Positions 16,330 to 28,164 of a stretch of DNA of 48,300 nt are shown piece after piece. Positions within the stretch are counted from its first letter, which is position 1. The number at the start of each line of letters is the position of its first letter. The notes beneath the pieces were generated by a model. It saw nothing but the letters and a program-made list of their open reading frames with translations. It had not been told where the DNA came from and did not search any database. The stretch is taken from sequence record SRR31156797_11191; one strand, given 5' to 3'. Both the position numbers and the translations under genes were made by a program.

Positions 16330-18465
16330 TTATTTGTATATCTTGACTCGAGTCGAGACATGCGCCTCGCCGCCGCGCATATCCTGTTCGTCCAACGTGG
16401 AACCGGCATCGGCAATCAATTCATTGTCGCCTATCCACTTGCCGCGAGATGCCACCTTGCCCATGGTCTGACCAAATCCGTGAATGATGCCCGCGCAACC
16501 GGGAATAATCTTTTCAGTCAACATGACAGGGACCTCAACAGAACCTGTACCTGATGCCATGGTCACGGTATCGCCATCAGAAATACCGAGTTTTTTCGCA
16601 TCAAGAGGATTCAGGAGACAGGGGTTGGCGTCGAGACCGGATACGGGGTCACGAAGCTGTGCGTTATTCTGGGACCATGCGCCGGTATTGTTCAGGAAAA
16701 TGGTCCTAAAATTAACAAGAATGAATGGGAACTCATCTTCACCACGACGATATTCCAGCGGCAGTTTGGGACTGGGCCACTTCTGGTCAATGTCCTCGTA
16801 CATCTGCCATTCCAACTCGATCTTGCCGGATGGTGTATTGAATTTTCCGTTATCTTCATATTTACGAAAACCAACAGCTCCCGGCGACCAAAGACCACCG
16901 TTCTCTTGGAGTGTCTTGACGGACATACCCACACCGGACAATTCGATGTCGTAATATTCTACATCGTCCTTAAACGCGAAGTACTCGGGGAACATGCGCT
17001 GACCAAGCTCAATGAACACACGGTTGGCATGTCTGGACTCACCGATGGGATCAACAACTGGCTGACACAGCGCCGCACAATGACCAAAGTTGTACCACCA
17101 CGGCATGTAGAGTAATTCCCACCGCTCAAAGTTGGTCTGATCAGGCAGAACGAGGTCGGCCCATTTCATGGTTTCCGACGGCATAATCTCGGTCACGACA
17201 AGCAGTTCCAGCTTGTAGTCGCCATTCTCGTCCTTCATGGTCACGGCCTTACGCCATTCGCCTGACCCCATTTCGGACAGAGCCGGGTTGCACTCCGAGG
17301 CAAAGAAGACCTTGAGGGTGTCGTCCTTGATGGCCTGTGCCGCATACCACGTCGGTTGCAGGAAGAAGTTGTAATTATCAAATTTTTCCCTGTTATTACC
17401 TGACCGATGATAGCCAAGCTCTGTAACATCAGGTGCCGGAGGAACGGGTTCAACCGCTGCCATGGGTGCGATGTCTGGCAAGGGCTGCCCCCCTGGGTTG
17501 TCCAGATTGCCGGTAATGACAAGGAAGATGGACCAAGCGTGTCCCCAATCCATGGCGTTCCCGTACATGATGGATTTGAACGCGTCGATACAGGCACTGG
17601 GAGCCTCGGCAACCATCTTGGCGAGCTTGATGATATCCTCGGCCGGGACATCACAAATCTTGCTCATGGCTTCCGGTGTCTTGTCCTTGATGTATGCCAT
17701 CAGGCCGTCCATGTCGCCTTCACGAACCCACTTGTCACAGAACTTCTTATCATGCAGATCATTCAGCAACAGGTAGTTGCAAACTCCCAAAAACAGCGAT
17801 GCGTCTCCACCGGGCTTAATGGGAATCCACCAATCCGCCTTGGATGCTTCCGTACGATAAATGGGATCGATAACAATGAGTTTTGCCCCGCGCTCCTTTG
17901 CGTCGAGAATATAACTAGGTACTGCGGCATCATCCAGACAACCGAACGGATGACGACCGGACAGAATCATCAGGCCGCCCTTGGGCACCGTGTGATACAT
18001 GGGGGCGATGTGATGATTGGGAAAACAACCGAACGTATGCATCATGGCCATGATCTTTCCCGAATCGCAATGAGGCAGGCCGGTCGAGATGAAGCCTCCG
18101 GCAGCATTGACAAAACGCCACTTCGGATCGGTCACGGAATGTGGAAACATGGAATAGGTAAATTTGTGGGCCTCACCGCGATCACGCAGTTCGGTCAACT
18201 TTGTTTCCATGATGTCCATGGCTTCTTCCCAAGTAATGCGCTCGAACTTTCCACTGCCACGCTCCCCTACACGCTTCATGGGATGCTTGAGACGCTCGGA
18301 CGAATACAACGAAGTGATGCCAGCCATCCCTTTGACGCAGGCCTTGCCGCGTCCGCGAGGATTTCCCTTCACTTCCTTGACGACACCATTCTCTACACGC
18401 GCCAAAATGGCACATTCAGCTTTACACTGATAGCAGACAGTTGGAATCCACCCATCTTGATACAT
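16330..18465 (-). CDS. Mo/W-bisPGD (DMSO reductase superfamily) oxidoreductase catalytic subunit, no Tat signal; substrate unknown
   Basis: CYQCKAEC...CVKG Fe-S, RLKHPMKRVGERG, IDP...ADWWIPIKPGGD, SETMKWADLVLP, FNTPSGKIEL, LNPLDAKKLGI. Confidence 0.9.
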   Translation of the reverse strand: MYQDGWIPTVCYQCKAECAILARVENGVVKEVKGNPRGRGKACVKGMAGITSLYSSERLKHPMKRVGERGSGKFERITWEEAMDIMETKLTELRDRGEAHKFTYSMFPHSVTDPKWRFVNAAGGFISTGLPHCDSGKIMAMMHTFGCFPNHHIAPMYHTVPKGGLMILSGRHPFGCLDDAAVPSYILDAKERGAKLIVIDPIYRTEASKADWWIPIKPGGDASLFLGVCNYLLLNDLHDKKFCDKWVREGDMDGLMAYIKDKTPEAMSKICDVPAEDIIKLAKMVAEAPSACIDAFKSIMYGNAMDWGHAWSIFLVITGNLDNPGGQPLPDIAPMAAVEPVPPAPDVTELGYHRSGNNREKFDNYNFFLQPTWYAAQAIKDDTLKVFFASECNPALSEMGSGEWRKAVTMKDENGDYKLELLVVTEIMPSETMKWADLVLPDQTNFERWELLYMPWWYNFGHCAALCQPVVDPIGESRHANRVFIELGQRMFPEYFAFKDDVEYYDIELSGVGMSVKTLQENGGLWSPGAVGFRKYEDNGKFNTPSGKIELEWQMYEDIDQKWPSPKLPLEYRRGEDEFPFILVNFRTIFLNNTGAWSQNNAQLRDPVSGLDANPCLLNPLDAKKLGISDGDTVTMASGTGSVEVPVMLTEKIIPGCAGIIHGFGQTMGKVASRGKWIGDNELIADAGSTLDEQDMRGGEAHVSTRVKIYK

Positions 18466-18504
18466 AACGTTCTCCTGTTGTTATCGCAGAAAACACATTT
18501 TCAT

Positions 18505-18636
18505 TTACTTTTTATGACTATCTTCTTTAAAGCGGTATTTTTTTCTATACGCATTCCCGATGATCCAAATAAACGCCCATACAGCGATGAAGACGCCCCA
18601 GATCAACGGATTAAAAGGACTGTAATCGAAGTTCAT
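18505..18636 (-). CDS. Small single-TM protein, 43 aa (not in the ORF track): MNFDYSPFNPLIWGVFIAVWAFIWIIGNAYRKKYRFKEDSHKK
   Basis: AAGGAGG RBS; ATGA overlap with the FNT stop; hydrophobic helix followed by a basic tail. Confidence 0.75.
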   Translation of the reverse strand: MNFDYSPFNPLIWGVFIAVWAFIWIIGNAYRKKYRFKEDSHKK

Positions 18637-19610
18637 TCCACCTCCTTAAGTTCCCCGTCGGCAGCCATGAATTCATGACGTTTGCGGTACAAATCCTTGA
18701 GTTTGAGGGGGTCTGCCACCAACTGGAACACAACCGCCACGAAAAGCGTTCCACCAATAGCATTACCCATGATTGTAAAGAGTTGGTTATGTGCCCAGCC
18801 AAACTTGCCGAACCCCCAGTGCATCAGCACTGGAACGACGTTGTTCATACCGGAAACAGCCTCAACCCACATGTCTTGTTGAAAAAGCGGTACGGCCAAA
18901 AAGCCGATATTCGCTATGCAGTGTTCATTCATGCCTGCCACAAAGGCCAGAGGGCCATATGCTGTCAGGACGATTTTGCTCATATCATCATTGGTTTTCA
19001 TGAAAAGGATGGCTGCGGACTGCAGAGTCCAAGTACAAATTATACCCATGACAAAGATTTCCATGGCGGTCTCGCCGGTCTTTGCCAGGCCAATTTCATG
19101 GGCTCGCATAAGCCAAGGCAGGGCGTGATAACCGCCGCCTTTACTCATAATCCACATGAAGGTCATGGAGCCTATGAAATTACCAATATATCCCACAAAG
19201 ACACCCCAGACGAACTGTCGCCAAGTGATGCGATCCTGAAACACTCCAACCAACCCATAGGCCATGTCTGCCGTGACAAGCGTCATTCCGCTGAACATGA
19301 TAATGACCAACGAGAACATAAATACGAGTCCCATGAGCAGATTGGCCAAGCCCGGTGCCAAACTACTCGGTACCCCGGCAGAAACAGCCAATGCCAGCAT
19401 GGCACCGAAGCAAACAAATGCCCCTCCCGCAAAAGCGGAAAGTAGAAAGGCCAGCGGCCTTTTTCGCAGCATTCCCCACTTCTTGTCACATACGTCTGCG
19501 ACTTCCATCAGATGTTTTTCAGGACTCAAAGGCATCCAATTCTCCCATTCGAAGGGATACGCCTCTGATATAATAGCGCATCCCCTCACTCTCTCAGCAA
19601 TCGCTTGCAT
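18633..19610 (-). CDS. Formate/nitrite transporter (FNT) family channel
   Basis: AGGAFVCFG, GLVF, LVTAD (LFT-like), GNFIGS, GIICT, EHCIAN, GNAIGG; probable start ATG 19610. Confidence 0.9.
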   Translation of the reverse strand: MQAIAERVRGCAIISEAYPFEWENWMPLSPEKHLMEVADVCDKKWGMLRKRPLAFLLSAFAGGAFVCFGAMLALAVSAGVPSSLAPGLANLLMGLVFMFSLVIIMFSGMTLVTADMAYGLVGVFQDRITWRQFVWGVFVGYIGNFIGSMTFMWIMSKGGGYHALPWLMRAHEIGLAKTGETAMEIFVMGIICTWTLQSAAILFMKTNDDMSKIVLTAYGPLAFVAGMNEHCIANIGFLAVPLFQQDMWVEAVSGMNNVVPVLMHWGFGKFGWAHNQLFTIMGNAIGGTLFVAVVFQLVADPLKLKDLYRKRHEFMAADGELKEVE

Positions 19611-19816
19611 GGTTATCCTGTCTTTCCACCAGCCAGCGCCGTGCACTGCGCGCAGACGTTTTTCGTCGTCCACACAAATAAGAGCCATGGGCACAGAAAA
19701 AAGTTACCTGTATAAGGATAAAATATGAAAGTTTTATAAAAAACCTAACAAAAAAGGGGTGTTGAGAGGTGTCTTTTTTTAAAGGACAGAAAGAGGAAGA
19801 AAAGCGTGGTCCTTCT

Positions 19817-21178
19817 TCAACAAAATTCATCACAAACGAATTCATCAAGATCACACGAGGAAGACAGGACACCACTGGCAATGGCCAATTGCATAAACTC
19901 ATGAATACGCCCCCGATCAGGACTCAAATCATCAAATGTGACAATTTTTTCTTCAAGGACTTTGGCTGCAAGATCTCGAGATACGCCGGTATACACAGCC
20001 TGGGTTGCGGCACAGTAGTCAATATCCGTGTGAAGCTTGTCTCTGGCCTGATATAAAATACGGACATAATCACTCACCAGTTCAGGATAAGCATTAAAAA
20101 AGTCCTCACGAACGGCAACCACACAGCAGATATGTCCCGGCGCAATCTCCTTGGAACGAATCTGCACATCAGCTCCGCCTTCACTGAGGCACTTCGTACT
20201 CCACGGTTCGGCACAAAAAAAGGCGTCTATCAACTGTCGCTTCAAGGAACTGATGACGTAGGAAGGGTTGGTATCAGCAGTACTGACGTTGCCCCAATTC
20301 CCCGGTTGATCCTGGGCCAACTTGCCGAGCAGGACACGATGCGTAGAATATTTGCCAGGGACGCCCACAAGCTTCCCCTCCAACTTTTCTGCAGAAGTTG
20401 TCAACGAACTCCCATCGTGATGCCCATCCATGATGTATTTGAGCGGTGTCCCGGAATTGCACAACTGCATGGCCAGAGGTGCCATGATAAATGCCGCGTT
20501 GATTGTTCCCTGACGCAAAGCATTGGCAAGTGCGGTCCAGGACAGAAATCGCTTCATGTGGATCCGGGAATTGCGCCCCATACCAAGGCGATGGGCCACC
20601 ATACCCAGCAAATGATCCGATATGGGAAGATAACCGACCTTGATGGCGGGTTCACTGACATGCTTTTCCAACATACTAGAAAGTAATGGGCGAGCACTGT
20701 GCAACCGCTTGCGTACGGTTCCTCTTTTCAAAGAAAGGGCATCAGCAACTTCTCCCACTGAATAGCCGGATTCAAAATAAAGTTGGCAGACATCCCGCAA
20801 CGGCTCAGACAACTTTAAAATAGCCTGACTAGCCGTAGCGCGAAAGCACTTGGATTCATAACTCAATAAAGGGTCAAAAGACTTCGGGGCAAGAGGCTCG
20901 AAACGAGCCAGACTCTCCAGAGATATTTCTCGCCCTCGGACTCGCAACTGCCGATGACACTGAGACACGACTATCGCCTTGAGCCAAGCGGGGAAACGGT
21001 CCACTTCACGCAGTTGATCCAACCGGGAATAGGCTATGAGTAAAGATTCTTGAACAACATCTTGCGCCTCATCAGAGGAACCAAGCATACGGTTAGCATG
21101 AGCGAGAATGCCGGGCATCAACCCGGTAATAAGTTCGTTCATCCCGCGAACATTCGTCTGTTCTTCAAAGTATCCCAT
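19817..21178 (-). CDS. ECF sigma factor fused to a C-terminal NrtA/CmpA/NasS-type anion-binding domain
   Basis: Sigma2 DEAQDVVQE..FPAWL; sigma4 GYSVGEVADAL...GTVRKRLHSAR; then KVGYLPISDH, SWTALANAL, MAPLA, STH, AEPW, GHICCV. Start uncertain (21202, 21178 or 21142). Confidence 0.85.
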   Translation of the reverse strand: MGYFEEQTNVRGMNELITGLMPGILAHANRMLGSSDEAQDVVQESLLIAYSRLDQLREVDRFPAWLKAIVVSQCHRQLRVRGREISLESLARFEPLAPKSFDPLLSYESKCFRATASQAILKLSEPLRDVCQLYFESGYSVGEVADALSLKRGTVRKRLHSARPLLSSMLEKHVSEPAIKVGYLPISDHLLGMVAHRLGMGRNSRIHMKRFLSWTALANALRQGTINAAFIMAPLAMQLCNSGTPLKYIMDGHHDGSSLTTSAEKLEGKLVGVPGKYSTHRVLLGKLAQDQPGNWGNVSTADTNPSYVISSLKRQLIDAFFCAEPWSTKCLSEGGADVQIRSKEIAPGHICCVVAVREDFFNAYPELVSDYVRILYQARDKLHTDIDYCAATQAVYTGVSRDLAAKVLEEKIVTFDDLSPDRGRIHEFMQLAIASGVLSSSCDLDEFVCDEFC

Positions 21179-21461
21179 GGGTCGGACGCACTCCACGTTC
21201 ACTTAATCAACTATTCAGACCTATTACGTATAGCGGTATATCAAGAAAAATAATTAGTCGAGAAAAAACGAAGAACCAAAGTTGCCTTTCACTTTTTATG
21301 AAAAAAAGCAGGACACCAAAAGAACAGTTCAAGTCATTATTTCAGACATATAACGCCACTGTTTATGTCTTTTCATCGCGAATAAAAAATAAAATATATA
21401 ATATGACTAAAAGGTCTAGATGGATATCTTGAGCGTGAATAAAACTTTAAGGGAGTATCCT

Positions 21462-23668: not shown

Positions 23669-24313
23669 TTACGCCTTCTTTTCCCATTCCTCTACTTCAA
23701 AGCCCTCGGGAACTTCTTCCCAACCGGAGAACATGGCCGCAATATGCGCGGTGACAGAATGTCCAGTGGTCGTCATGTAAACGTGAACAATAAGGAAGAT
23801 AAGGATAGAAAACCCGCCAATCAGATGCAACAAACCTATCACTTCAAGTGAGAGGAACGACAACCCCCAATTGGCCCAATCGTTGTATCCCCAGTACAGA
23901 AAACCGGTCACCATCTGGAATGGCAACAGCATGGCCGTCAATGCCAGATAGGTCAGTCGCTGCATGGGATTATGTTTTGCGCTCTTGGACTTGTGCACAG
24001 GGTGCTCTTCTCCCTTGAAGATGCCTGATCCATAATACATGGCCACCTCGAAAAGCTTCTTGGTGGTCGGAATATATTGTTTGTATTCGTGGGTTACGAA
24101 CATCCAAAAGGCAAAGAAGAAGAACATGCCGAGCCACAACAGCCCCAGGGTGTTGTGCAGATCAACCGCCCCCATGAAACCGAACAGCTCAAACGTACCA
24201 TGTACTTCAAAACCAGTGGCCAGAAGCAGGATAATCATGATGGCTTGAAACCAGTGCCAGAAACGCTCAAACTTGGAATACAGGTATATTTTTTTCATTG
24301 ATTGTTGACTCAT
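23669..24313 (-). CDS. Di-heme cytochrome b membrane subunit (PhsC/HydC-like), partner of the OTR
   Basis: ERFWHW, LH, HNPMQRLTY, LH...HVYM heme-b His pattern; four TM helices; 3 bp after the otr stop. Confidence 0.88.
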   Translation of the reverse strand: MSQQSMKKIYLYSKFERFWHWFQAIMIILLLATGFEVHGTFELFGFMGAVDLHNTLGLLWLGMFFFFAFWMFVTHEYKQYIPTTKKLFEVAMYYGSGIFKGEEHPVHKSKSAKHNPMQRLTYLALTAMLLPFQMVTGFLYWGYNDWANWGLSFLSLEVIGLLHLIGGFSILIFLIVHVYMTTTGHSVTAHIAAMFSGWEEVPEGFEVEEWEKKA

Positions 24314-24316
24314 GGA

Positions 24317-26038
24317 CTAATCCTCCTTCCTTCTGAGACCGGAGACAAAGCGCATAATGCCATGAATGATAACAGCCAATAATGCGGCTCCTGCGCCAAA
24401 CCACCCTGCGGAATCCACAAGCTGATACTTGTCCCGACCCGGCATATAGAATCCAGTCAGGTCCTTGAGTCGCCCTTCAGGATTATGGCACTGGGCGCAC
24501 TTCAGCGCGTTCTCGCGGGGTGCAACCATATGTGTGGTCGGGAAAGCGTAGGTCGTTTCCACAAACCCGAATTCACCACTGTATTTCTGTCCGGCATATT
24601 TCATGCCCACTTCAATGGATTTTTCCCAGTCAAACCCCTTCCAGTATGCAGTCTTGTCCTTCTTGTCGAAGGGGAAAAGATGCGGAATGACCATGGTCTT
24701 GTTGACCTTGTCATATGGAGACATGGCCCGATGCACTTTGAACGGCATGATGCGGGAATTCGGGTCTTTCCTGTCGCCGTTTGGCCGATTCAGCCAGACT
24801 TCCCCGGTAGGATCGATGGCATCTTCGGTGGTGACGTGATCCATGGTCCCGTCGAACCAATAATATTCAGGTACAACATCCTTTTCCCAGACAAACTCAC
24901 CCTTTTTCTTCAAAAATACCGGCTTACCATCTGGCCCCTTGATCTTGGCTTTACCGTCCATAAGTTGTCCTGCTTTGGACCAATCCCACCACATCTTGGT
25001 GGATTGGGCACGAGCAAATTCAGGAATATGGCATGACTGACACGCCACCTTGTCGGTATGATCATTCAACTTGGAGAACATACCGCCGCTCATGTGGGGC
25101 TGACTACCGTGGCAGGATTCACACATGATTTTGTCGCCAAGGTCATCCTGAAGCAGACTCTTGCGTTCCAAAGCCGCAGGCTTCTCATAAATACGCCCGG
25201 CGACATGGTGGTTGCGTGTAGTGTGACAACGGGTACAGGCAAAGTCCTGACCGCCGGACTCCTTGGTCCCCATATGGACATCAAGATTCTTGTCAGGTTT
25301 GACCAAGGAGGAATCAAGATCGCCGTGCTTGACCGCGTCAGCCCCACCACCAAAGAAATGGCAGGAACCGCAGTTCTTGCGTTCCGGGCGGCCAACGGAT
25401 TGGGCAACCTTGGCCCAGTCAGGTGCATAATAGGTCTTGCCGTTTGATTTGAAGACCACGCCCTTCTGCGTACCCGGATTTTCCGGGTCCTCGACATATT
25501 TGGCGGGATAACCCGCACCGGACGGAAACTTTTTGTAGGTTCCGGTTTTTTCGTGACAGACAAGACAGTCGACTTTTTCCTGAGAGGTAAAGTCAAAGCT
25601 GTTGTCCTTCCATCCATAACCGGCATGACATGATGTGCAACGAGCCTCGTTGCTTGCGGTGTTTATTCAAAAATTGTTGACGGATATTCCGCCCTTGCCG
25701 AACTTTGCCGGATTTCCGGCTTCGTCTTCATCCCGCCATGTCCAATGAATAGTCTGATGAAACTGCAAAGCCGCCTTGTTGTGACAACCAAGGCAGGCTT
25801 GCGTGACCTCTTCAGGTCGCATGGTCTTTTGTTTTTCCGGATCAAATTGCAGTTGTGCGAACTTGCTGTGATCAGCCGTAATTGTCTGAATCAGCGGTTT
25901 CGCCTTAGTCGCCTGAATGGCCAACGTTCTGCCCGGCGCGTTCTCGTGCTCCACTGCGGCCCATGCGCTCCCGGCATGAACCATCACGAACAACACCGCG
26001 AGGACCGTCAACAGCCATCGCCGATTGCAAATGGTCAT
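24317..26038 (-). CDS. otr: Octaheme c-type cytochrome, tetrathionate reductase (OTR) family, 573 aa, in-frame UGA at codon 124 (probable selenocysteine)
   Basis: Signal peptide, AGGAGG RBS, eight CxxCH (CLGCH, CTSCH, CLVCH, CGSCH, CTRCH, CESCH, CQSCH, CAQCH) in one frame; the only interruption is TGA at 25667-25669 in GKGGISVNNF*INTASNEARCTSCHAGYGW. Confidence 0.9.
25637..25653 (-). promoter_or_regulatory. Putative bacterial SECIS hairpin
   Basis: GCAACGA-GGC-UCGUUGC starts 13 nt after the UGA; the G-starting apical loop is 20 nt from the UGA. Confidence 0.75.
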
Positions 26039-26146
26039 GTTCAACCTCCTGTTACTCTCGGTACCCCTCCCCGGAGGCCCATGCGCTCCGGAAAAAACTT
26101 TCATCTGTCTATATGTGCATGTTTTCATGTTTGATGTCCATATTTC

Positions 26147-26160
26147 ATGAAATCGATCAA
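26147..26160 (-). promoter_or_regulatory. Degenerate FNR-type box upstream of otr
   Basis: TTGAT-CGAT-TTCAT on the minus strand (8/10 match to TTGAT-N4-ATCAA). Confidence 0.5.
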
Positions 26161-27168
26161 TCATCCCTTCACCGGGACTGTAACAGCACCTTGCATGGAC
26201 TCGGCTTGTGAATCGCCAAAGATTTTCGGAGTGAAGCGGACGTACCAAGCAGCTGACTGAACCTGAATGACATACGCCATGGCTATAACCAACGCGGCAT
26301 CCGACCCTTTTGTGCCAAAGGCATTAATGGCAATTGCCAATGCAATGGAAAGATTACGCATGACCGAGCCATAAACCAATGCAATAGCATCACCACGCGA
26401 CAAGAAAAACTTGCCCACCACAGTACTCAAAACAAAATTCACGCCGTAAATAATCACGAGCGGGACAAGGATATCGAGCAGTACTTCGGGAGCCGAGGCA
26501 ATAGTCTTTGCCTTGAGCGCCAAGGCCACGAACACGATGCCGAGAACGCCCAGCGTGGAAAGCGACGGAAACTTCGGCCCGATCTCTTTCTGAAATAATC
26601 CTTGACCATAACGGGCCACCAGAAACCATTGAGTGAAAAAGCCCAAAACCATGGGCAAAAACACAATGAAAAAGATCTGCCTGAATACGGCCAAAAGGCT
26701 TATATCAATGGTCGTCCCCATGAAGGCCTGCACATAAAAGGGTGTAGCCAAAGACCCCAGAATCAGACCGATAACAGTCATTTTGATGGCAGCAGACATG
26801 TTTCCCTTGGCAAAACCGGTCCACGAAATGGTCATACCACTCGTGGGTACCAGTCCGGCCAAGAGCAGACCGAGGGCCATGTATGGATTGTCTTTAAAAA
26901 AGAGGAGGCCGACGCCAAAGGCGAGGAAGGGAATCAGCCCGAAATTAATGAGCTGAGTAAGTATTTGCGCCTTGACGTCGCCCCCCTCGAAAACCTTCCT
27001 GATCTTGAGTGTGACCATCATGGGATAAACCATGAGGAAGGTGAATGGAACGATCATGGATTTAAGCCAGCCGGTATCGGCTGACACTCCGTAAGCAAAC
27101 CCGGCCACCATCATAACGGGGATGGCAACAACAAGGTTTTTTGATATTTTCTGAAGTAATGCGAACAT
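26161..27168 (-). CDS. SBF/Acr3-like (bile acid:Na symporter / 'arsenic resistance') transporter
   Basis: MVYPMM, PTSGMTISWTGFAKGN, MRNLSIALAIA; about 10 TM helices; ATG 27168 behind GAGGA. Confidence 0.85.
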   Translation of the reverse strand: MFALLQKISKNLVVAIPVMMVAGFAYGVSADTGWLKSMIVPFTFLMVYPMMVTLKIRKVFEGGDVKAQILTQLINFGLIPFLAFGVGLLFFKDNPYMALGLLLAGLVPTSGMTISWTGFAKGNMSAAIKMTVIGLILGSLATPFYVQAFMGTTIDISLLAVFRQIFFIVFLPMVLGFFTQWFLVARYGQGLFQKEIGPKFPSLSTLGVLGIVFVALALKAKTIASAPEVLLDILVPLVIIYGVNFVLSTVVGKFFLSRGDAIALVYGSVMRNLSIALAIAINAFGTKGSDAALVIAMAYVIQVQSAAWYVRFTPKIFGDSQAESMQGAVTVPVKG

Positions 27169-27189
27169 GAGTATTCCTCGCTTGAGCAA

Positions 27190-27484: not shown

Positions 27485-27510
27485 CACAAACGACTTTTTC
27501 AGGATTTTTG

Positions 27511-28164
27511 ATGAAAAAAAATGAACTCAAGGACGCAATCCGGGATTTTCCGGTATTTGCCAAGCTCAAGGAAGAGCAGCTCGACCGACTGGCTTCACAT
27601 GCAGAAATCATGGAATTCCCCAGAAAATCACTGTTCTTCAGTGAAGACAAATCCGCTCAGGGCATGCATGTACTACTCTCGGGACAGGTGAAACTGTTCA
27701 AGATATCCGAAGACGGAAAAGAACAGACCATCTTTGTCTTCGGTCCGGGAGAGCCGTTCTGTCTCTGCTCCACCTTTTCCGATGGCAAGCTGCCAGCCAA
27801 TCTCGGAGCATTGGAGAACAGTCAGGTTCTATACATCACGCCGGATGAATTCGAACTGTTGGTCCAGGAAGACCCGTCCATCCTGCTCGTCATGATGCGG
27901 GTCATGTCCCGCCGTCTGAAAGAAGCCATGGACATGATCGATTCCCTATCACTCAAGCAGGTGCCGTCCCGATTGATGGCCTACTTCGAAAGCCGTCATC
28001 AGGAAGGACGCGTCACGCTTGATCTGTCGTATCGGGAACTCGCCAAGATCATCGGCATCACTCCAGAGGCCCTCTCGCGCACCCTGCATAAAATGGTCGA
28101 TGACAAACTGATCACAATGGATGGACCAGACATCTTGCTCACAGCTACAGACAAAAACGGCTGA
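27511..28164 (+). CDS. Crp/Fnr family transcriptional regulator (HcpR/Dnr-like)
   Basis: cNMP-like domain ([23 protein letters not shown]); [18 protein letters not shown] with ExxSR. Confidence 0.92.

Follow-up and report, generated by a model that had tools for sequence, protein, structure and literature searches.

A stretch of DNA of 48,300 nucleotides from sequence record SRR31156797_11191 (the window) carries on its minus strand, from 26038 to 24317, a gene for an octaheme cytochrome c of the octaheme tetrathionate reductase (OTR) family, with an in-frame TGA at codon 124. We conclude, with a probability of roughly 93%, that this is one intact gene for a genuine selenoprotein and that UGA 124 is decoded as selenocysteine (Sec). 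The conclusion is drawn from the alternation of Cys and UGA codons at this position among related genes, a hairpin linked to the TGA forms, the Sec machinery of the nearest genome (G001), and purifying selection on the gene. The conserved non-heme Cys of the family (Cys64 of 1SP3, the structure of the Shewanella oneidensis OTR) is present here as Sec. The features on which the argument depends are the following.

24317–26038, minus strand: complete gene for a Sec-containing octaheme cytochrome c of the tetrathionate reductase family, assigned from its reading frame, TIGR04315 and 1sp3_A.
25667–25669, minus strand: UGA codon 124, probably read as Sec, aligned to Cys64 of 1SP3.
25637–25653, minus strand: putative selenocysteine insertion sequence (SECIS) hairpin, with 5' arm GCAACGA (25653–25647), loop GGC (25646–25644) and 3' arm UCGUUGC (25643–25637).
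25694–25696, minus strand: Lys115 of a GK motif, the likely counterpart of the catalytic-heme Lys of Shewanella OTR.
25625–25639, minus strand: second CxxCH motif, CTSCH, residues 134–138, 10 residues after Sec124, located by motif scan.
25781–25795, 25553–25567, 25358–25372, 25223–25237, 25109–25123, 25028–25042 and 24485–24499, minus strand: the other seven CxxCH motifs.
25958–26038, minus strand: predicted signal peptide, approximately residues 1–27 (…HAGSAWA/AVEHE), from reading the translation.

In the track of open reading frames (ORFs) the gene appeared as two minus-strand ORFs, 25667–26248 and 24317–25459, which are in the same frame and are parted by the single TGA at 25669–25667. When TGA is read as U, the frame that starts at the ATG at 26038 codes for 573 residues and closes with a TAG stop codon at 24319–24317. 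U124 was the sole deviation from translation table 11, and neither a second stop nor a frameshift was found in the 573 codons. An AGGAGG sequence is present at 26050–26045, 6 nt upstream of the ATG. The readthrough product contains eight CxxCH motifs, at residues 82, 134, 158, 223, 268, 306, 333 and 514; two of them, CTSCH (134–138) and CLVCH (158–162), sit between the track ORFs and are covered by neither. Translation thereby confirmed what the initial annotation had read from the letters alone, namely one frame broken only by the TGA at 25667–25669, a product of 573 aa and eight CxxCH motifs, two of them in the segment omitted from the track. The hairpin GCAACGA-GGC-UCGUUGC, which it had described with a loop 20 nt after the UGA, was likewise found, at 25653–25637. 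TGA terminates 10 of the 27 long frames in the window and so serves the source organism as a normal stop codon.

The NCBIfam profile TIGR04315 matched residues 55–531 at 591.1 bits (cut-off 375) over its entire length (positions 1–440 of 440), and the match is one stretch that spans the UGA. Pfam matches were to Cytochrome_cB and multiheme domains. The only solved relative was 1sp3_A, the S. oneidensis OTR (E = 4e-111), and in an ungapped alignment the UGA fell on its Cys64, in the context sinnfCv. Because the single TIGR04315 match crosses the TGA, and because every one of the 80 homologous loci has Cys or TGA at the column, the UGA-containing gene is more than a chance arrangement. All eight CxxCH motifs were present in 78 of 81 sequences; the remaining three were cut at contig ends. 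A GK pair occurred no more than 12 residues upstream of the Sec/Cys column in all 81, with the lysine 9 residues from the column in 66 sequences and 8 residues from it in 13. Lys115 would be the equivalent of Lys56 if a one-residue insertion or deletion is allowed relative to the 1SP3 alignment. The catalytic heme of Shewanella OTR is ligated by Lys, as stated in the part of PMC13562315 that concerns it.

The 80 loci (L022–L101) were obtained by a scan for homologues that retained one genome per species, and the region around residue 124 was aligned. The codon in the Sec column was TGA in 15 loci, TGC in 40 and TGT in 25, with nothing else; neither TAA, TAG nor a frameshift was found at the column in any of the 80. 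The closest full-length proteins in a large collection were Cys forms with 84% (P0002) and 80% (P0003) identity, which indicates that exchange between Sec and Cys occurs over short evolutionary distances.

The nearest genome, G001, consists of one 3.7-Mb contig with a completeness score of 100%, and it has 51% of the words sampled from the window in common with it. G001 contains the octaheme gene with TGA at the same position. The two genes differ at 38 of 1722 nt, with 1, 2 and 35 of the differences at codon positions 1, 2 and 3, respectively. At the codon level there were 34 synonymous and 3 non-synonymous changes (16 and 3 before the TGA, 18 and 0 after it), and the amino acid was kept at 570 of 573 positions. 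On the pattern of these changes, both halves of the gene are under purifying selection. DNA contigs from three other samples (X2, X6 and X9) also cover the UGA; among the 40 differences from the window listed for them, none lies between 25608 and 25714, and 38 are at third codon positions. Contigs from a metatranscriptome run (X17) matched 24716–24964 and 25223–25574, and none lay on the UGA; DNA carry-over is possible in this run, and these contigs are no evidence of expression of the octaheme gene.

The hairpin lies 13 nt after the UGA, with its loop starting 20 nt after it, and its 3' arm ends within the codon for the first Cys of CTSCH, the heme-2 motif. To score hairpins we required an uninterrupted stem, G at loop positions 1 and 2, and a loop start 14–37 nt after the codon. 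The stem was 7 bp in all 16 TGA sequences (the window and the 15 loci), with loops starting 20–24 nt after the codon. By longest stem, the 65 Cys loci divide into 1 with 7 bp, 2 with 6 bp, 10 with 5 bp, 21 with 4 bp, 24 with 3 bp, 5 with 2 bp and 2 with 1 bp. A 17-nt hairpin was invariant in 14 of the 16 TGA sequences, where it codes for (S/G)NEARC, and the adjoining codons vary at synonymous sites. Whereas the Sec hairpin codes for NEARC, the Cys forms mostly have NEPRC with freely varying third positions; the Sec forms thus seem to pay for the RNA structure with an Ala where the Cys forms have Pro.

The single Cys locus with a 7-bp stem, from a Desulfatitalea metagenome-assembled genome (MAG) (L040, 3244–3280), has TGT at the Sec column together with a nucleotide-identical 17-nt hairpin that codes for NEARC, and it nests within a Sec clade on the tree described below. 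It looks like a recent replacement of Sec by Cys that has kept a relic SECIS. Two TGA loci that form a clade of their own, L072 (3079–3125) and L079 (300–346), have a 7-bp hairpin of another sequence, CUGGUGC-AGGU/AGUU-GCACCAG, after a spacer of 17 nt, four nt further on than the common hairpin, and they code for an extra Cys (NWC[R/S]C) just ahead of the heme-2 motif. A different sequence with a like structure in a like place is what an RNA element predicts.

Profile searches of G001 found selA (615 bits), selB (398 bits), selD (342 bits) and tRNA(Sec) (81.8 bits), all above the cut-offs; ARAGORN found no tRNA in the window. The selD gene of G001, which itself holds a TGA, and three fdhA genes of that genome served as an internal control, being accepted selenoprotein genes. 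The selD SECIS is a 7-bp stem capped by GGA, 13 nt after the codon. Those of the fdhA genes stand 15 nt after the codon and have 8-bp stems capped by GGC or GGG. The OTR hairpin (13 nt, 7 bp, GGC) thus has the build of the selD and fdhA elements of the same genome. In a fourth molybdopterin enzyme of G001 (L105, G001:C1:2470023–2473778) we also observed an in-frame TGA, in the context DHCART-U-HAPS, with a hairpin of 7 bp, a 12-nt spacer and a GUC loop.

A search for selA covered 40 of the 80 locus genomes, all 15 of the TGA form and 25 of the 65 of the Cys form. Scores above the cut-off were obtained in 14 of the 15 TGA-form genomes versus 23 of the 25 Cys-form genomes. At the Sec-form MAG locus without a selA match (L059), the OTR frame runs to 723 codons, overruns the usual stop and lacks the membrane-helix tail; a frameshift, a fault in the assembly or a fusion could account for the overrun.

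The initial annotation had placed Sec at the active-site Cys column of the OTR family, and the TIGR04315 match, the Cys64 alignment and the 15 TGA and 65 TGY codons support that placement. It had also looked to alternation of Cys and UGA across genomes, to a conserved downstream hairpin and to the sel genes as checks. The alternation was seen in the 80 loci, the hairpin in 16 of 16 TGA sequences against 1 of 65 Cys sequences, and selA, selB, selD and tRNA(Sec) all in the nearest genome, which has the same TGA. What it had named as arguing the other way, a TAA, TAG or frameshift in relatives or a UGA unique to this assembly, did not appear among the 80 loci, and the TGA is kept in G001.

Three other explanations of the interrupted frame were weighed. 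The one that survives best, which we nevertheless consider very improbable, is that a standard amino acid (Cys, Trp or Gly) is inserted at the UGA by readthrough or recoding, with no selenium involved, or that TGA is a sense codon in the genetic code of the source. Near-cognate readthrough of UGA does occur in bacteria. Against this stand the use of TGA as a normal stop in 10 of 27 long frames, a hairpin built like the selD and fdhA SECIS elements of G001, and the complete Sec machinery of that genome; moreover, the aligned residue in the relatives is always Cys, the usual counterpart of Sec, and not Trp or Gly.

Inactivation of an ordinary Cys-type OTR gene by a nonsense mutation is less probable still. 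Gene callers treat the gene as such a pseudogene would be treated, since the products predicted for close relatives are N-terminally truncated proteins of 355–447 aa that start after the UGA. A pseudogene would not, however, be expected to have TGA at the same column in 15 of 80 loci and at no fewer than five places on the tree, a nucleotide-conserved hairpin confined to the TGA forms, purifying selection on both halves (34 synonymous versus 3 non-synonymous changes against G001), or 573 codons with no further stop or frameshift. The two track ORFs can also be read as two products, a 123-aa monoheme cytochrome with a signal peptide and a separately initiated heptaheme protein, but this is the least probable of the three, because the downstream part would have no signal peptide and thus no c-type cytochrome maturation, CTSCH and CLVCH lie after the UGA but ahead of the first start codon that could be used, alignments to the family profile and to 1SP3 run through the break as a single chain, and 65 of the 80 relatives have an uninterrupted ORF.

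The selenoprotein appears to have a membrane partner, for which two further features are needed.

23669–24313, minus strand: gene for a cytochrome b561-type membrane subunit of 214 aa, 4 nt downstream of the octaheme gene (PF01292, 94 bits).
24338–24406, minus strand: predicted C-terminal transmembrane helix of the octaheme protein, approximately residues 545–567, with invariant His559, from the protein tails and the alignment.

A cytochrome b homologue was present downstream in 77 of the 80 loci (14 of the 15 Sec loci and 63 of the 65 Cys loci). At least two of the three loci without it (L058 and L060) stop at a contig end before the 3' end of the gene, and the third (L091) has room for it. 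The cytochrome b has four invariant His residues. The His motif of the helix was found in 76 of 81 sequences, with His559 (H366 of alignment A2) invariant. We modeled the last 380 residues of the octaheme protein in complex with the cytochrome b and two hemes. The score was 0.77, and the best of three controls scored 0.00; of 80 solved complexes 58 attain that mark, as do 2 of 110 mismatched pairs. Contact agreement among the runs was at least 93%, with a predicted local distance difference test (pLDDT) value of at least 84 for the partner. In the model, the octaheme protein meets its partner through the C-terminal helix and the surroundings of the eighth heme motif, and the His559 helix is predicted to pack on the cytochrome b helix that bears H163 and H177. 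The model thus supports binding of the cytochrome b to the C-terminal helix, and the cytochrome b561 is likely the quinol-oxidizing electron donor.

These observations can be assembled into a possible mechanism. SelB and Sec-tRNA(Sec) would decode UGA 124, directed by the 7-bp, GGC-capped hairpin 13 nt downstream. Sec124 would then take the place of the family's invariant non-heme cysteine, 9 residues after the Lys and 10 before the CxxCH motif of the catalytic heme, in an octaheme enzyme that would face the periplasm and be anchored in the membrane. Electrons from menaquinol might pass through the cytochrome b561, packed on the C-terminal helix, enter by heme 8 and travel along the heme chain to the Lys-ligated catalytic heme. 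There the selenolate could act as a nucleophile on a chalcogen–chalcogen bond, that of tetrathionate, polysulfide, thiosulfate or a selenium species. A heme-selenolate site, as put forward in the initial annotation, would imply Fe–Se ligation.

Several points weigh against this interpretation or parts of it. The Sec machinery was seen only in G001 and in relatives; one TGA-form MAG, G011, gave no selA match, the only such TGA-form genome; and selA is near-universal in the group, so that its presence does not discriminate between Sec and Cys forms. Folding energies gave no support to the hairpin. The 73-nt stretch that contains it had a stability z of −0.57, with 50 of 200 shuffles folding as well, and the mean folding energy of nt 4–55 was −11.7 kcal/mol for TGA forms versus −11.2 kcal/mol for Cys forms (Mann–Whitney p = 0.54). 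Folding energy was accordingly set aside as an argument, and the significance of the hairpin comes from the comparison with other sequences. At gathering thresholds, Rfam gave no match in the window. The placement of the Cys/Sec position beside the catalytic heme is that reported for Cys64 of Shewanella OTR. The passing score of the complex may mirror solved cytochrome b anchor complexes, and this job was unlike the calibration in that it used its own alignments with hemes riding along. The choice of substrate, finally, is purely conjectural.

To follow the exchange of Sec and Cys, a quick maximum-likelihood tree (LG+G4, unrooted) was built from 80 rows, with the trait column masked and L074 dropped because it was shorter than 430 aa. 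The tree needs at least 6 changes between Sec and Cys, compared with a mean of 14.8 for shuffled traits, and none of 500 shuffles was as low. TGA forms occupied at least five separate places. The clade that holds the window has full support and comprises six Sec forms, among them records labeled Salidesulfovibrio, Pseudodesulfovibrio and Desulforhopalus. Because the identical hairpin was found at four separate tree positions, these results suggest an old Sec state with repeated loss, the direction of change being inferred on an unrooted, quickly searched tree.

A bolder version of this scheme would make Sec ancestral in the membrane-anchored OTR/cytochrome b module of sulfate reducers, with Cys repeatedly replacing it. 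The four positions with an identical SECIS, the TGT relic in L040 and the drift from NEARC to NEPRC in the Cys forms point that way; we nonetheless consider the proposal tentative and rather less probable than its opposite. If it were true, the Cys64 position would be marked as the nucleophile, because Sec swaps only with catalytic redox cysteines. The native chemistry of the family would then be cleavage of S–S, S–Se or Se–Se bonds at the Lys-ligated heme and not nitrite reduction, the OTR family would form a second, mechanistically distinct class of heme-plus-Sec reductases after MccSep of Geobacter sulfurreducens (compared below), and the long-open question of the role of the OTR enzyme would be settled.

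The remainder of the neighborhood was also inspected. A gene directly upstream for an SBF-family (bile-acid/Na+ symporter) transporter (26161–27189, minus strand) was considered as part of the module and rejected, because it stands beside the octaheme gene in only 2 of the 80 loci (L022 and L058). A Crp/FNR-type regulator is coded divergently at 27508–28164. Further away, in an ORF of 461 aa (19817–21202, minus strand), sigma-70 regions 2 and 4 are joined to an NMT1-like periplasmic-binding-type domain, an unusual fusion, and at 16330–19694 (minus strand) a 711-aa molybdopterin oxidoreductase with an Fe4S4 domain adjoins a gene of the formate/nitrite transporter family, with no in-frame TGA.

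The question left by the initial annotation, whether such a Sec variant had already been described, can be answered in that it has been catalogued. A 2026 review (PMC13188914) lists Sec-containing TIGR04315 proteins as "GenBank annotated", with one Sec per protein. The RefSeq Sec record of the review and the protein described here belong to the same NCBIfam family and have one Sec each; the review's entry gives the Sec motif as "-" and, in that entry, no position, SECIS or primary reference. One RefSeq Sec record of TIGR04315 is WP_331457571.1. Full-text literature searches found no primary description of a Sec-form OTR, and only the review and MccSep were relevant. Literature searches on the role of Cys64 or Lys56 found nothing; in the relevant passages of PMC8840924, PMC7096707 and PMC5146829, OTR is merely cited and the cysteine goes unmentioned. 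The octaheme gene is thus a further member of a catalogued but unstudied kind of selenoprotein. The new details are a nucleotide-invariant SECIS that overlaps the heme-2 motif, a coupled Pro/Ala difference, a relic hairpin in a Cys form, at least six switches between Sec and Cys, and a conserved cytochrome b partner.

The prediction that annotation pipelines would call this gene a pseudogene held in part. Public gene calls in close relatives do start after the UGA, but the RefSeq record is annotated with Sec according to the review's entry (PMC13188914). At least 9 of the best 120 protein matches appeared truncated by length and coverage, and the four inspected begin after the UGA. Because many such calls are truncated and have no signal peptide, surveys of multiheme cytochromes and of selenoproteomes undercount these proteins. 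The source is a cultivable group (relatives of the Desulfovibrionaceae), so the enzyme could be purified and tested.

Among the known systems closest to the protein described here is the Shewanella OTR. Both belong to the same family and have eight CxxCH motifs, the GK lysine motif and a non-heme Cys position before the second CxxCH. They differ in the Sec in place of Cys64 and in one extra residue between the GK lysine and the Sec position. The crystallized Shewanella OTR is soluble, whereas the protein described here ends in a transmembrane helix bearing an invariant His and is encoded next to a cytochrome b561 gene. In this respect it resembles respiratory formate dehydrogenase and NiFe hydrogenase, in which a PF01292 cytochrome b and the C-terminal helix of a partner form the anchor; here the PF01292 protein has four invariant His residues and is predicted to pack with a His-bearing C-terminal helix. 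Unlike in those enzymes, the periplasmic partner is a multiheme cytochrome c and presumably receives its electrons from quinol.

Shewanella OTR acts in vitro on nitrite, hydroxylamine and tetrathionate; the passage concerned in PMC13510729 names nitrite and thiosulfate. The same paper, in the parts that deal with the enzyme, describes MccSep (ExtKL, GSU2937–2936) of G. sulfurreducens as a pentaheme selenoenzyme and polysulfide reductase (PMC13510729). Like the enzyme proposed here, MccSep resides in the periplasm, carries several c-type hemes and has a single Sec, placed at the active-site heme and suggested to serve as the nucleophile in cleaving the S–S bond. It differs in having five hemes, an active-site heme ligated by His/Cys instead of Lys, a tetrameric structure and no tetrathionate activity (PMC13510729). 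The ExtKL family NF040886 was not among the seven NCBIfam families matched by the octaheme protein at E values up to 0.01, and MccSep therefore belongs to a different family. Natural exchange of Sec and Cys at one invariant non-heme position argues that the exchanged residue is a redox-active nucleophile, which in turn would point to sulfur or selenium chemistry, as in MccSep.

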